The notes under the pieces: model-generated
The model's database searches: none
Told to the model about the DNA's origin: nothing
The model's input: only the letters and a program-made list of their open reading frames with translations
Translations under genes and position numbers: made by a program
Shown here: positions 16,894-44,922 of the stretch, one piece after another
How positions within the stretch are numbered: position 1 is the first letter of the stretch
How the letters are laid out: each line of letters begins with the position of its first letter
Sequence record: PV112478.1
Length of the DNA stretch: 64,000 bases
Direction: 5' to 3' (one strand)
Source: Klebsiella phage LPKP23

Positions 16894-18963
16894 TTAAGCG
16901 GTTTCGTAATCAGTAATCTGACGACTGGTGTAAATGAACCGGTAAGGGTTAGGTTTGCTGTACTGTGCTACCGCACCGATCGGCGTATTGTAGAGATGAA
17001 TCTCGCCGCTACCGTACGTTTGGAAGCTGGACTTCACGCCGTTGTCGTAACTACAGCTGTAGAAATAAGACGCCCCTCTACCGTAAACGTTAGAACCTAC
17101 CGTATCTTTCCCGACGACATACAATGCACCTTTAATGCTGTCGGTGCTTTGGTTGCCGCTGGCGATCGTTTCGAGGTGAGCCACGAAGGTATTCAGTCCG
17201 TACTCTTCGATAGGGTAACCGTCTACATTTCGGTAAGTCGATTTGAATCGAATCCCGATTACACCCGGCCCTACTAACGACCCACGTTTTTGTCCATTAC
17301 CCGAACCGAAGTGATTCTCGGATACGCAACTGACTTCGAGGAACGTGCCTTGTACCCCCAACGGAATTGTCTGACGGTCACTGCCGTGATAGGTACCGTA
17401 AGTCCCGCCGTTACTGAAATGGCAATCTTGAGAGAAGACCTCAGCCCCGTAGTTGTTCAGACACGCCGTTGAACAGGTTCCGGTAACCTCCACGCCCTTC
17501 AACCATAAAGACGGCTTCGCGTTGATCGCCACAGACTCAGCACCCAAACCAATGTCGGTATCAGAGACTTTCACATTGGAGACGTAAATTGTACTGTTCC
17601 CAGTGAAATTCAGTCCCGTGTTCCTCACAACGACTTTAACGTTACTGTCAGGTTTACGGCTATTCGACGTCTGAACAATAATCGCAGTGGACGTCACGCA
17701 GTAGCTTCCTACTGTGGCCACTACCGCAGCAGGACCGTCTACTTCCACTAAGCGTTTAGGTAATCCGTTACTGTCTAACGTACCGTAATCAAAGACACCG
17801 GCGATACTTAGACCCGTTGCTAAATATTGATAGACAACGTTAGAGTCGGAGTAAAGCGACCAGTTAGTGATCCCCAGATCGCCCGTAAAGGTTGGTACGG
17901 TGCCACCGGTGCCATAGATACCGATCTTACGGTCATTCACTGTACGTTGAACGAAGAACGGTTTAGAGCCCTTCACGACGATACTGGTGGCAATAGGCGA
18001 TTTATCAATTGCAGCGTTAAGGGTTTTCAGTGGGTTAGCTTCACTTCCGTCATTCCCGTCTGCGCCGAGATCAGAGTCAACGTAGTAGACCGTCCCGTAG
18101 GGGAAGTACCATTCGCTCAGATCAAAGTCGGTTGAGAACCGCATCAGTCCCTGGGCCAACGCCCCCTCGTAAGGGAAGACCGCAGCGAGTGGATCAAAAA
18201 CCGCAGGGAGTTTAGGAACTACCGGCAAACAGTTATTTGCACTGTCGTAACTGGTCTCGTAAGAAGGGCCGGTCAGTTCCAGTAATTGCCCAGCGCGGAA
18301 ACGAGCCACTGTATTACCCGATTGTAGCGAACTTTGAGTCATTGACAACGACCCGTCATTCCCTAAAATAACCCCAGTATTCGAGGTAGTCGGTGAGAAA
18401 CTCCCTTGCTTCCCAACCACAAAGTTTTCGCCGTTAACTCGGCTTTTCCCGGAGAGCGCAAAGGTTTTACCGTCTGACTGATAAAGTTGGTACGGGGTAC
18501 GGAGCCAATCACGAATCGTGGTTTCCTGACCGAAATAAACTTCGAGTGTCCCGATGTACATCAATGAAGTGGCAACGGTTTTCAGTGTAAAGACACCGAT
18601 CGTGGTCGTCAACGCAGTGGGGATGAAGACTTCCTGTTTGATATCGGTCATGTCAAGCTGTAGACCGTACAACGTATTCAGACGGGCAACGATATCTTCG
18701 GCCGTGAATATTCCGGCAGTAGACATGAACACCACGGGCTCGGTCAGGACTTTATTGAGATTGACCCGGTTGTAATCAAAGACTGCTGAATCACGATAGT
18801 CACCTGCATCGGTCGCTACCGCGGTGATACGCGTGTTAAAATTCCCGGTCGTCAGGGCAGTGAGGTTGATGAAATCCAAATCGCTTTCTTTAAAAAAGGC
18901 GTCGTACTGCGTGTTCAGCTGACGAACCAGAAGCGCTTTACTTTTTAACGAGAAATCTGTCAT
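16894..18963 (-). CDS. tail fibre / tail-spike protein (689 aa), paralog of the gene at 18980-21040
   Basis: Large Gly/Ser/Thr/Asn-rich beta-rich protein. It shares the blocks ARFRAGQLLELTGPSYETSYDSANNCLPVVPKLP, SRKPDSNVKVV and C-terminal PYRFIYT with the 686-aa neighbour. Confidence 0.7.
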   Translation of the reverse strand: MTDFSLKSKALLVRQLNTQYDAFFKESDLDFINLTALTTGNFNTRITAVATDAGDYRDSAVFDYNRVNLNKVLTEPVVFMSTAGIFTAEDIVARLNTLYGLQLDMTDIKQEVFIPTALTTTIGVFTLKTVATSLMYIGTLEVYFGQETTIRDWLRTPYQLYQSDGKTFALSGKSRVNGENFVVGKQGSFSPTTSNTGVILGNDGSLSMTQSSLQSGNTVARFRAGQLLELTGPSYETSYDSANNCLPVVPKLPAVFDPLAAVFPYEGALAQGLMRFSTDFDLSEWYFPYGTVYYVDSDLGADGNDGSEANPLKTLNAAIDKSPIATSIVVKGSKPFFVQRTVNDRKIGIYGTGGTVPTFTGDLGITNWSLYSDSNVVYQYLATGLSIAGVFDYGTLDSNGLPKRLVEVDGPAAVVATVGSYCVTSTAIIVQTSNSRKPDSNVKVVVRNTGLNFTGNSTIYVSNVKVSDTDIGLGAESVAINAKPSLWLKGVEVTGTCSTACLNNYGAEVFSQDCHFSNGGTYGTYHGSDRQTIPLGVQGTFLEVSCVSENHFGSGNGQKRGSLVGPGVIGIRFKSTYRNVDGYPIEEYGLNTFVAHLETIASGNQSTDSIKGALYVVGKDTVGSNVYGRGASYFYSCSYDNGVKSSFQTYGSGEIHLYNTPIGAVAQYSKPNPYRFIYTSRQITDYETA

Positions 18964-18979
18964 TTTAAATTCGCCCCAG

Positions 18980-42976: not shown

Positions 42977-42999
42977 TACCTCCATTCAGGATTAAAGAC

Positions 43000-44922
43000 A
43001 TGTCTAATGAAACGCAGAAAATTAGCGAGTTAACAACAACGAGTATTATCCCTGAAAAATCACTTATACCCGTAGTGGCGGATAATCTCCTGACTAATTC
43101 CGTAGATATTACCACATTACGATCCACCCTTAATTTTGAAAATGCTTTTTCTACTATAAATGAAGGCATTGCCGCAACTAATAAAAATGACCCGTTCTTT
43201 GTTTACGAGGATACTGAAAGGTTTTCTGTCGTCGGTTATGTTAATCAAGGAGGCGGGTCGTATTCCTTATTAGTCGATGGTGACGGGAAACAGGTTTCTT
43301 TTGCTACATCGAATGCAACCACTGACGCAATGAAAGAAAAAAGAGTCAGATCGAAACTCTTTATTTACGCTGAAGCAGAGGGTGTTGTCAATGACTCCAG
43401 TATTGATTCATCGGATGCTTTACAGGCACTTGTGGACAAATACAAAGGTATCAGAATAATCCTCCCACCTAGTATCATGATTAAGAAAACAATAAAGTAT
43501 TATACGCAAACTATTATTTCAGGAATTGCGGAAACGAGGAGTATTATTTGGGCTGGCGCCGGGTTCGTTGGATCCAGTATGTTTGAGCCGGCAACGACAA
43601 CAAAACAATCTGTCCAAGAACCTGATTTCTCCGATCTTACTTTAGCCGATCAAAGTGCAACAAACGTCAACCGCGGAACTTCTTCTGCGATTAATGGTAT
43701 TGAGCTTGTTGGGACGTTTGTTGCAAAAGTGGAAAATATAAAAGGTGTTCGTTTGAATGCGACGATCCACTGTAATGTCGGCACTGAGATTCAGCACACA
43801 ATGCGCCCTTATATACGTCGTATTAATGGATCGAATGTCAACTGGCATATTTTGTTCGAACCTACAACCGATGATCGATTTGCATATGGAGATGTGTATC
43901 TATCTGATATTAAAACATCTGGTAGTTGCATGAACGGAATAAGGGTTCGTGATACTGACGGTTTACAAATCAACGGCGCGGTTATTTTCCCTAACGGGGG
44001 TATTGAAATTTCTGGTCATTACCTTAATCTTTCAAATATTCATCCGTTCGAATCTAAATCTATTTTAGGTGATACTAGAATACCTGCGGCAATAACTATT
44101 CTACCCCGTGGCCCCAATACCTATAGCCGTTTTATTAATGTTCATGGCGTTGCTAGCGGGTTTGCTGGGAGATTAGCTGACACAACTATCGGGAATCCTG
44201 CGCAAACTAATAATCCCGCCCCGGGAATCTACATGGAAATGTGTTTGAACTTTAATGTTTCATTTACGGTTAATCAGTCAGCGCAAGAAGCTTTACGATT
44301 AGTAAATTGTCAAAATGGTACTTTTTCTTTCTCTAGTCTTGATGTTAATACACAGGCACTCGGTTCCGGTAAGTTACCGGAAGGTACTTACGATGTAGTG
44401 AAACTGGAAAGTTGTAAATTTATTAATGGTATTTTTACTGATATTTCCGCAAGTCGTAGATATGCGGTTTACCTCGATGATAACTGCGTAAATAATAACA
44501 TTGTAGGTACTTGTTCTCGAGGTCTCATACTCGGCCAAAACGTTAGATTACCCACTAATGGTAATTTTAATTACGTTAAAATCATTAGTGAGAATTCAAC
44601 TGGATCAACTACATTCGAACAGAAAAAACCATCTGCGAGCATTCAGACAATCTCGGATGGGTTGGCCACTCCCGAGACTCCTAATATTTCAAACAACGAT
44701 GTTATTAAATTTAACAATTCAGTAGTGACTAATGTCACTGATTTACCTAGTATTGGAAATTATCAGTCGGTCACTGTAGTGTTAAGTGATAACAATGCAA
44801 CGCGTTTAGTTGATGTCGCCAACGGCGGGAAATTTAGTCTTGGTGGGGCAAACATCATGGGAAGAGGTACCGTTTTACGTCTCTATCGCGACGATTTAAG
44901 CGGGAACCTTATTAAATATTAA
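43000..44922 (+). CDS. tail-spike protein (640 aa), plus strand, anchor type A
   Basis: Anchor A: ISELTTTS...ENAFSTINEGIAATNKNDPFFVYEDTE. A strong terminator lies downstream. Confidence 0.7.
   Translation: MSNETQKISELTTTSIIPEKSLIPVVADNLLTNSVDITTLRSTLNFENAFSTINEGIAATNKNDPFFVYEDTERFSVVGYVNQGGGSYSLLVDGDGKQVSFATSNATTDAMKEKRVRSKLFIYAEAEGVVNDSSIDSSDALQALVDKYKGIRIILPPSIMIKKTIKYYTQTIISGIAETRSIIWAGAGFVGSSMFEPATTTKQSVQEPDFSDLTLADQSATNVNRGTSSAINGIELVGTFVAKVENIKGVRLNATIHCNVGTEIQHTMRPYIRRINGSNVNWHILFEPTTDDRFAYGDVYLSDIKTSGSCMNGIRVRDTDGLQINGAVIFPNGGIEISGHYLNLSNIHPFESKSILGDTRIPAAITILPRGPNTYSRFINVHGVASGFAGRLADTTIGNPAQTNNPAPGIYMEMCLNFNVSFTVNQSAQEALRLVNCQNGTFSFSSLDVNTQALGSGKLPEGTYDVVKLESCKFINGIFTDISASRRYAVYLDDNCVNNNIVGTCSRGLILGQNVRLPTNGNFNYVKIISENSTGSTTFEQKKPSASIQTISDGLATPETPNISNNDVIKFNNSVVTNVTDLPSIGNYQSVTVVLSDNNATRLVDVANGGKFSLGGANIMGRGTVLRLYRDDLSGNLIKY

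Follow-up and report, generated by a model that had tools for sequence, protein, structure and literature searches.

A probable phiKp24-type receptor-binding-protein locus in Klebsiella phage LPKP23: conserved gene pair, variable spike genes and putative regulatory joints

Why should a phage genome hold eleven large genes of tail-spike or fibre character side by side, and how would such a set come to change? The question is raised by a stretch of 64,000 nucleotides (nt) from Klebsiella phage LPKP23 (record PV112478.1; hereafter the window), in which a reading made from the sequence alone had described such an array between positions 16894 and 44922. Our follow-up leads us to assign the region, with considerable confidence, to a Klebsiella jumbo myophage of the phiKp24 group with a backbone closest to Siatvirus, as its receptor-binding-protein (RBP) locus, and to divide it into a conserved gene pair and nine hypervariable spike or depolymerase genes. 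In organisation and function it matches what has been published for the phiKp24 group; what is new is the combination of modules.

Identity of the locus and its relatives

Eleven large open reading frames (ORFs) of 592-1304 amino acids (aa) are present, the ORF listing agreeing exactly with the sizes and coordinates given in the sequence-only reading. The minus strand encodes nine of them (16894-40190) and the plus strand the other two (40352-42910 and 43000-44922), and we name them ORF1 to ORF11 in coordinate order (Table 1). Contrary to what had been stated, they are not strictly consecutive: four small ORFs (21149-22501) lie between ORF2 and ORF3, and ORF5 is followed by an ORF of 64 aa (28525-28719). 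A tRNA scan found no tRNA genes.

The jumbo-phage origin that had been proposed is borne out by the relatives of the locus. A megablast search with 32 kb of it against 50,697 phage records matched 12 records only, all of them Klebsiella jumbo phages of ~300 kb, with a query coverage of 59% at most. The matches include KpLz_1_41, KpXa_1, KpYy_2_45, KpSz_1, KpZh_1, KpZh_LPS_45, KpLz-2_45 (Siatvirus) and vB_kp_MJ359 (MJ359), as well as vB_KpM_FBKp24 (Maaswegvirus Kp24; phiKp24, with FBKp24 used here for its genome) and vB_KpM_Centimanus. Six relatives have the same layout, four of them by annotation (FBKp24, MJ359, KpLz-2_45 and Centimanus) and the unannotated KpLz_1_41 and KpSz_1 by ORF maps. 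The common gene order runs from a dUTPase gene through two genes of ~689 and 686 aa and four small genes to a minus-strand array of 5-8 large genes; a divergent intergenic region follows, then a plus-strand arm of 2-5 large genes, a bidirectional terminator and a gene for a 188-aa virion structural protein. Annotated relatives, ORF maps and DNA identity blocks all give the window the synteny of the phiKp24 group.

A cryo-electron-microscopy study of phiKp24 described 'hyperbranched' tail fibres, predicted 14 depolymerase-bearing fibres and identified gp306 as the primary fibre (PMC9700779), and 11 of the 14 phiKp24 RBPs are experimentally confirmed depolymerases (PMC13385381). The branched multi-depolymerase spike complex proposed for the window finds support both in the synteny with this locus and in docking modules of the T4-gp10/CBA120-TSP4 type (XD modules), which an iterative profile search located twice in tandem in ORF7, once in ORF4 and in none of the other ORFs. 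Since the hyperbranched fibres and their confirmed depolymerases are already published, the general reading is right, and the kind of system is one already known.

ORF7 has the long T4 gp10-like N-terminal region of a gp306-type primary fibre. Its residues 1-424 are 85% identical to FBKp24 gp306, and over its full length it is 98% identical to its KpLz_1_41 counterpart. Structural matches are to Gp49 (9d83, E 1e-28), to CBA120 TSP4-N (7rej/7rfo, E 4e-11), to TSP2 (6w4q) and to the tail-fibre complex 9d80, the entries 9D80-9D84 being named here by their deposited titles only; 7REJ/7RFO are the T4-gp10-like assembly domains of CBA120 TSP4-N (PMC8825819). When the ORF7 N-terminus was used in a word-index search for homologues, a single protein came back, too little for an alignment-based model of the docking region. 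The true start of ORF7 is probably Met16 at 35840, which would give 918 aa, because the orthologues in KpSz_1, KpLz-2_45 and MJ359 begin there and a GAGG ribosome-binding site precedes it. The listed start (35885) is the ATG inside a TATGAC motif.

Table 1. Coordinates of features in and around the RBP locus of the window
Feature	Position	Strand	Description
ORF1	16894..18963	-	689 aa; DUF7941 N-terminal domain, predicted beta-helix body; orthologue of phiKp24 gp294/295
ORF2	18980..21040	-	686 aa; DUF7941 N-terminus; right-handed beta-helix at about residues 290-615; first in ORF2-ORF1 operon
Four small ORFs	21149..22501	one on +	135 aa (acidic), ~109 aa, 70 aa (+), 81 aa; conserved in all relatives
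ORF3	22672..24450	-	592 aa tail spike; TSP3/gp63.1-type N-terminal docking domain (aa 1-88) and beta-helix
ORF4	24503..28417	-	1304 aa; six-RBP N-terminal anchor, one XD module (aa 101-181), long body, C-terminal Peptidase_S74 chaperone (aa 1158-1218)
64-aa acidic ORF	28525..28719	-	ATG overlaps ORF5 stop codon; accompanies gp303-type module in relatives
ORF5	28719..30704	-	661 aa depolymerase; N-terminal peptide of only ~17 aa; predicted K64/KL178
ORF6	30779..33046	-	755 aa depolymerase; 'QPGGS' N-terminus; predicted K19
ORF7	33084..35885	-	933 aa as listed; gp306 orthologue in N-terminal 424 aa; XD modules at aa 115-205 and 221-285; beta-helix body
ORF8	35934..37901	-	655 aa tail spike; six-RBP N-terminal anchor, GAKGDGITDD at aa 149, beta-helix and C-terminal beta-sandwich
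ORF9	37977..40190	-	737 aa depolymerase; predicted K46/KL146; cassette opposite in orientation to phiKp24 orthologue
Divergent control region	40191..40351		TATGTAC-type motif for ORF9 (~40230, -); orphan hairpin ~40278-40305; TTTCGTATGAC at 40312-40322 (+), 35 nt before ORF10 ATG
ORF10	40352..42910	+	852 aa depolymerase; N-terminal 177 aa a phiKp24 gp309-type anchor; C-terminal beta-helix module of other origin
ORF11	43000..44922	+	640 aa tail spike; six-RBP anchor (~100 aa, 55-58% identical to relatives)
Bidirectional terminator	44927..44958	both	14-bp stem between convergent ORF11 and 188-aa DUF7941-type virion gene; MFE (minimum free energy, kcal/mol) -29.6, z -9.5
Terminator-promoter joint, example	28462..28500	-	hairpin 28477-28500, T-run, TATGAC 28462-28467, 50 nt before ORF4 ATG
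Equivalent joints	30732-30772, 35881-35924, 37926-37970, 40278-40322, 42937-42976, near 21064-21144		
TATGA(C/G) sites	28462-28467, 30732-30737, 35881-35886, 37926-37931, ~21064-21069, 50911-50921	-	
TATGA(C/G) sites	40317-40322, 42971-42976	+	
Inverted repeat, left arm	37927..37945		19 nt, 95% complementary to 40303-40321; part of ORF8 hairpin and TTTTGTTTCGTATGA joint
Inverted repeat, right arm	40303-40321		inside divergent control region
Conserved islands, examples	27786-28484, 34876-35924, 37560-37963, 40277-40883, 42971-43205		

The conserved pair and the variable spike genes

The eleven genes do not vary alike. The segment 14001-22675, with ORF1 and ORF2 inside it, forms one unbroken block that diverges at the backbone rate, being 94% identical to Siatvirus-like genomes and 73% identical to FBKp24 and Centimanus; ORF1 itself is 97-99% identical in the Siatvirus-like relatives and 72% identical in FBKp24. 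DNA identity falls off exactly at the ORF3 stop codon and recovers exactly at the ORF11 stop codon, and the hypervariable arsenal is therefore the nine genes of 22.7-44.9 kb. To judge from these sequences, ORF1 and ORF2 evolve with the backbone and are never swapped between phages.

It is quite possible, if somewhat short of probable, that only the nine variable genes are receptor-binding depolymerases, and that ORF1 and ORF2 are either conserved structural beta-helix proteins, in the baseplate or fibre network, or enzymes for a conserved non-capsular glycan, in both cases outside the host-range arsenal. Their place in the backbone-rate block fits such a role. So does their N-terminus, which is the DUF7941 domain (Pfam E 1e-18 in ORF1, which also matches PHROG 30606), found in 'virion structural protein' PHROGs and again in the 188-aa virion gene at 44968-45534. 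In addition, gp294 and gp295, the phiKp24 orthologues of the pair, are missing among the tested and confirmed phiKp24 depolymerases, and so ORF1 and ORF2 may not be capsule enzymes. On the other side, ORF2 matches PHROG hydrolase and tail-fiber families, and the authors of the phiKp24 study include the orthologues of both genes in their 14 fibres (PMC9700779).

The 188-aa gene (minus strand) lies beyond the bidirectional terminator and is a free-standing DUF7941/phrog_2935 domain, the same that ORF1 and ORF2 carry at their N-termini, so that the locus has this domain at either end. The four small ORFs lie between the conserved pair and the array of variable genes; a PHROG search gave no match for them, and a bidirectional hairpin is found among them at 22224-22258. 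The 135-aa protein encoded there (21149-21556, minus strand) has an extremely acidic C-terminus (DDYDDDDYQSVPEDFEDDE), is kept in all relatives and matches no family.

Paralogous modules had been proposed for the whole array, and the proposal holds in part. ORF4, 7, 8, 9, 10 and 11 have a common N-terminal anchor of ~100 aa, with 28-37% identity and the invariant pattern K-x2-E ... LR ... FENA ... F-x-VY; we label it the 'KISEL...FENAF...FFVY' anchor. ORF1 and ORF2, which are 27% identical over ~620 aa, are a separate paralogous pair, so that paralogy is not uniform across the eleven. ORF5, ORF6 and ORF7 have part of the beta-helix body in common, and the 'QPGGS' N-termini of ORF3 and ORF6 are weakly similar (pairwise E 3e-8), the ORF3 N-terminus also matching G7C gp63.1 (4qnl) and CBA120 TSP3 (6nw9/5w6f).

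The beta-helix and pectate-lyase character ascribed to the entire set could likewise be recovered only for some of its members. Pfam matches exceed the curated cut-off in two of the eleven, ORF3 (Beta_helix, E 7e-7) and ORF10 (Beta_helix, E 2e-25; NosD, E 9e-14); sub-threshold matches are seen in ORF7 (Beta_helix) and in ORF8 and ORF11 (Pect-lyase_RHGA_epim, weak in ORF11), and the rest give no signal. Beyond the Pfam matches, we assign a right-handed beta-helix body to ORF1 by its paralogy to ORF2, and to ORF5, ORF6 and ORF9 by 84-98% identity to modelled and tested phiKp24 enzymes, leaving the body of ORF4 out of this assignment. The GAKGDGxTDDT block, put forward as a feature common to the set, is present in ORF8 only, and none of the eleven ORFs matches Pfam Pectate_lyase_3. 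Peptidase_S74 is found above the cut-off in ORF4 (E 2e-11; PDB matches 3gw6 and 3gud) and in none of the other ten. ORF4 also matches a tail fiber family (PHROG 15695) over its full length with E 0.

Three of the variable genes have close counterparts among the tested phiKp24 enzymes. ORF5 is 96.8% identical to gp303 (YP_010298940), ORF6 is 97.6% identical to gp304 (YP_010298941), and ORF9 is 84.3% identical to gp308 (YP_010298945) and 99.5% identical to its KpLz-2_45 counterpart. In experiments with the recombinant enzymes gp303 is specific for K64/KL178, gp304 for K19 and gp308 for K46/KL146 (PMC13385381), and we predict the same targets for ORF5, ORF6 and ORF9, respectively. For ORF3, 4, 7, 8, 10 and 11, no exact 16-mer (one per ORF, both strands) was found in the DepoCatalog sequences, a result that excludes near-identical entries only; in the absence of a match we assign no K-type to these six.

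The shuffling of cassettes that had been suspected is supported by a mosaic pattern in which N-terminal anchors and upstream joints are kept and C-terminal enzyme modules are swapped. In the DNA identity blocks, the conserved islands of the variable region always consist of the 5' end of a gene and the joint upstream of it, and the 3' parts, which encode the enzyme bodies, differ. The best partners of the individual genes are dispersed over several phages: Centimanus for ORF3 (93% identical to its tail spike, and to that only), FBKp24 for ORF5 and ORF6, KpLz_1_41 for ORF7 and ORF8 (98-99%) and KpLz-2_45 for ORF9. Single proteins are divided in the same way. Residues 1-222 of ORF4 are 93% identical to MJ359, the remainder just 48% identical to Centimanus. 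ORF10 is 92% identical to FBKp24 over residues 1-177 and, over residues 115-852, 62% identical to an exopolysaccharide (EPS) depolymerase of the unrelated jumbo phage vB_KvM-Eowyn, so that its body comes from outside the phiKp24 group; residues 122-639 of ORF11 are 43-47% identical to tail spikes of Klebsiella phages of 40-48 kb, and the bodies of both ORF10 and ORF11 are absent from the Siatvirus-like genomes. Among public proteins, more than 14 distinct C-terminal bodies follow an anchor of the ORF8 type (57-94% identity over ~120 aa).

A 5.3-kb block (27785-33048), comprising the ORF4 N-terminus, its joint, the 64-aa ORF, ORF5 and ORF6, is 90.4% identical to FBKp24 against a backbone identity of 73%, which points to a recent exchange between genera. 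The unit of exchange is usually the C-terminal module, at times with a small downstream ORF, and not always the whole gene. The 64-aa ORF has no family match. In FBKp24 and KpLz-2_45 the gp306-type body is followed by another small ORF, of 97 aa, which is absent from the window, where ORF7 has a different body. Both small ORFs may encode module-specific assembly factors.

Putative regulatory joints and the ORF9 flip

Strong GA-rich hairpins had been reported at nearly every gene, and we do find them at 12 of 13 junctions within the locus and next to it, with purine-rich 5' arms (AGAGAGGAG, AAAGGAGGAG and similar). For 11 of the 13 the MFE is -16 to -32 kcal/mol, with z-scores of -3.3 to -9.5 against mononucleotide shuffles. 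The twelfth hairpin is imperfect and lies in the 161-nt divergent region, which as a whole reaches a z-score of -1.9 only, and the 16-nt gap between ORF2 and ORF1 is the sole junction without a hairpin. Terminator-like sites exceed their frequency in shuffles about two-fold (40 against 20.0 +/- 5.1; 27 against 12.2 +/- 3.1).

Upstream of ORF2, 4, 5, 7, 8, 10 and 11, the hairpin is followed by a T-run and an invariant TATGA(C/G), which stands 29-50 nt before the start codon; ORF9 has the variant TATGTAC at -40. The pattern TTTNNTATGAS occurs six times in the 64 kb against 1.43 expected, a count reached in none of 100 shuffles, and all six occurrences lie 29-46 nt before the starts of structural genes, five of them in the joints and the sixth 35 nt before the start of the head-maturation-protease gene. 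More generally, TATGA is found at -25 to -65 before all of the operon-first RBP genes and before few of the ~54 remaining ORFs. When seven genomes are compared, the stems differ by compensatory changes, and the T-run, TATGAC and the sequence just downstream (~23 nt) are invariant, even between genera.

Two genes beside the head and virion genes match RNA polymerase (RNAP) beta-like PHROGs (54145-58632, minus strand, 1495 aa, E 0; 58648-60279, minus strand, 543 aa, E 3e-185), indicating that the phage carries an RNAP of its own. The late promoters of phiKZ contain TATG and are read by that phage's non-virion multisubunit RNAP (PMC4666361). Because the motif is enriched, invariant and regularly positioned, because the phage encodes RNAP subunits, and because of the likeness to the phiKZ TATG, we propose the T-run with TATGA(C/G) as a candidate late promoter of this phage group, and regard it as a lead. 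The FBKp24 genome paper, in which automatic predictors only were used, does not describe the motif. Sigma-70-like promoter sites are not enriched (35 against 30.9; 30 against 23.9), and the divergent region holds a single 10/12 match to them, which we rejected as a promoter because it lies right against the ORF9 ATG.

ORF3 and ORF6 are the genes without a TATGA motif, and each lies directly downstream of an XD-bearing gene. This suggests two operons, ORF4-ORF3 and ORF7-ORF6, each pairing a docking fibre with the spike docked on it; ORF3 is probably co-transcribed with ORF4, and ORF6 probably with ORF7. The hairpins before ORF6 (33047-33083) and ORF3 (24451-24502), on the minus strand, consist of Shine-Dalgarno-like AGGAGG sequence. 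They may act on the translation of the docked spike or on the stability of its RNA, and not as transcription terminators.

The divergent region (161 nt) and the bidirectional terminator with its 14-bp stem, both of which had been predicted, are present, and in FBKp24 divergent promoters and a both-strand terminator are already annotated at the equivalent places. What differs is the orientation of one cassette. Positions 37927-40238 of the window align in reverse, at 77% identity, to positions 31161-28852 of FBKp24, where gp308 is the first gene of the plus arm. The ORF9 anchor type is on the plus strand in FBKp24 and MJ359 and on the minus strand in KpLz-2_45, KpLz_1_41, KpSz_1 and the window; the orientation of the cassette is out of step with the backbone phylogeny. 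In both genomes the ORF9/gp308 cassette is a gene with its own promoter-like motif, set between two outward-facing terminator-promoter joints. These joints form the inverted repeats that flank it, which are the best of the region in both genomes; the equivalent pair in FBKp24, of 27 nt (28723-28749/31135-31161), flanks the same cassette in the other orientation. Neither hairpin moves: one terminates the cassette, and the other stands as an orphan within the divergent region. Recombination between the inverted joints would be the simplest explanation of the flip.

The orphan hairpin at 40278-40305 (plus strand) is degenerate, and no gene precedes it on that strand whose transcript it could end; FBKp24 has its orphan on the opposite side. 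The two positions are consistent with a flip of the ORF9/gp308 cassette between the two hairpins. We considered a site-specific invertible segment of the Mu Gin or P1 Cin type and did not adopt it, given that no invertase was seen, that the repeat is a regulatory joint and that a whole self-contained gene lies between its arms. No invertase was noticed among the annotated neighbours in the relatives, and the small ORFs of the window were not all scanned for one.

We put forward tentatively, as a possibility rather than an expectation, a wider reading in which the RBP genes are autonomous, orientation-neutral cassettes, each with its own TATG-type late promoter, served by the phage RNAP, and a palindromic terminator, whose joints double as recombination handles; since adjacent joints may stand as inverted repeats of one another, cassettes would flip between the arms, in the manner of ORF9/gp308, or be swapped between genera. 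Against it may be set the view that the hairpins and TATGA are ordinary intrinsic terminators plus chance or ribosome-binding-site-context sequence with no part in recombination, that exchange proceeds via N-terminal coding homology only, and that the ORF9 orientation records a rare illegitimate event. We think this view doubtful, though by no means far-fetched. It can point to the conserved islands, which always take in 100-1000 nt of coding sequence at the 5' end, far exceeding the length of the repeats (19-27 nt), and to GA-rich hairpins without TATGA that follow late genes outside the locus too (46584-46605 and 47193-47215). It fits poorly with the two end-points of the inversion, both of which fall inside the two joints, these being the best inverted repeat in both genomes; with the motif region of ~23 nt, invariant across two genera when the neighbouring stems change by compensation; and with a motif that is enriched four-fold and placed 29-50 nt before starts. 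The idea of the sequence-only reading that two genes (40352-44922) were recently inverted onto the plus strand in a once co-linear array, which the strand switch, divergent intergenic region and bidirectional terminator around the pair might seem to favour, is highly improbable and already contradicted: each of the six relatives, even in the other genus with its backbone identity of 73%, has a plus-strand arm in the corresponding position, with 2-5 genes and N-terminal anchors orthologous to those of ORF10 and ORF11, so that the arm is ancestral, FBKp24 has annotated divergent promoters and the same bidirectional terminator, and the sole orientation difference found is that of ORF9.

In the assembly suggested by homology, ORF7, the gp306 orthologue with two T4-gp10-like XD modules, would be the primary fibre and ORF4, with one, a secondary branching fibre. 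ORF3 and ORF6, with N-termini of the TSP3/gp63.1 type, would each dock on the product of the XD-bearing gene directly upstream, and ORF8-ORF11, like ORF4 and ORF7, would use the common anchor. Each C-terminal beta-helix module would bind and cleave one capsule type, and the virion would show many specificities, of which K64/KL178, K19 and K46/KL146 are predicted from near-identity to tested enzymes and the others would come from six more modules without a tested counterpart. Expression would proceed from some eight late transcription units, self-contained and each delimited by a hairpin terminator, with the TATGA motif possibly read by the phage's own multisubunit RNAP. The conserved joints and the 5' anchor-coding segments would serve as homology handles, at which recombination could swap C-terminal modules or whole cassettes between phages, and by which it could have inverted the ORF9 cassette between the two outward-facing joints that form the inverted repeat.

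Several points weigh against this picture, in addition to the absence of gp294 and gp295 from the confirmed enzymes. Virion incorporation, trimerisation, branching order and enzyme activity of the RBPs of this phage are all inferred, and the branched fibre tree is shown by morphology only, and for phiKp24 (PMC9700779). Three XD modules face up to eight candidate docking partners, and a profile of the six-RBP anchor, searched against Pfam and PDB, returned only spurious repeat-protein and DUF matches. The K-type predicted for ORF9 is based on 84% identity, a distance at which specificity can change. The hairpins before ORF3 and ORF6 have no good U-tract on the coding strand and may not terminate. 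The likeness of TATGA, a candidate promoter motif, to that of phiKZ extends to four bases only, and the RNAP subunits seen may belong to the virion enzyme.

The conceptual gain is small, as a hyperbranched multi-depolymerase jumbo phage with modular RBPs has already been published. We found four points that go beyond the literature, all of them incremental: a locus split between a conserved pair and nine variable genes, a cassette grammar in which hairpin, T-run and TATGA follow one another, XD-bearing genes paired with downstream spikes that lack a promoter motif, and the flip of one cassette flanked by inverted repeats. The locus sets which Klebsiella capsule types the phage can attack and is thus relevant to phage therapy, and the six modules without a tested counterpart are candidates for new depolymerase specificities. 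It also provides an engineering map for the phage group, in which modules break at the end of the N-terminal anchor and the regulatory joints stay invariant. If true, the autonomous-cassette reading would amount to a defined 'plug-and-play' grammar for host-range evolution and engineering in jumbo phages.

Comparison with known systems

The phiKZ late promoters (PMC4666361) resemble the motif of the window in being a short, invariant, TATG-containing sequence upstream of late or structural genes, in a phage that encodes RNAP beta-like subunits. The candidate motif of the window is longer (T-run and TATGAC/G) and always comes after a hairpin. PhiK64-1 and vB_KleM-RaK2 (Alcyoneusvirus) carry about 9-11 capsule depolymerases per jumbo virion and have a multi-K-type host range (as summarised in PMC9700779). 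The likeness to such Klebsiella/Escherichia jumbo phages that had been expected extends to function only; no DNA similarity was detected, neither phage is among the 12 megablast records, and they represent a different phage lineage with a different locus organisation.

The nearest parallels for docking are the Ackermannviridae phage CBA120, with TSP1-4, and G7C, with gp66/gp63.1. They have XD modules as in ORF7 and ORF4 and an N-terminus of the TSP3/gp63.1 type as in ORF3, and they too place the adaptor gene beside the gene of the docked spike. The number of spikes is 2-4 in these phages against 9-11 in the window, six of the window spikes use an anchor without a Pfam or PDB match, unlike those of CBA120 and G7C, and there is no overall sequence or genome relationship.

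The locus of phiKp24 (vB_KpM_FBKp24, Maaswegvirus; gp294-gp313; PMC9700779, PMC13385381) is far closer. Like the window, it has the dUTPase gene at one flank and the 188-aa virion protein gene at the other, the same DUF7941 pair, the four small genes, the same order of N-terminal anchor 'slots', divergent promoters and the bidirectional terminator. Its backbone is only ~73% identical to the window, which accordingly belongs to a different genus-level lineage. The window has 11 large genes in the locus and phiKp24 has 13, with two and five in the plus arm, respectively; the gp308-type cassette is in the opposite orientation, and the C-terminal modules of ORF3, 4, 7, 8, 10 and 11 differ. Closest of all are the Siatvirus-like KpLz-2_45, KpLz_1_41, KpSz_1 and vB_kp_MJ359, whose backbones are 94-96% identical to the window and whose ORF1 and ORF2 counterparts are 97-99% identical. 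Even against these phages, which each cover 59% of the locus at most, the gene set of the window, in which ORF3 and ORF4 are closest to Centimanus, is a new combination.

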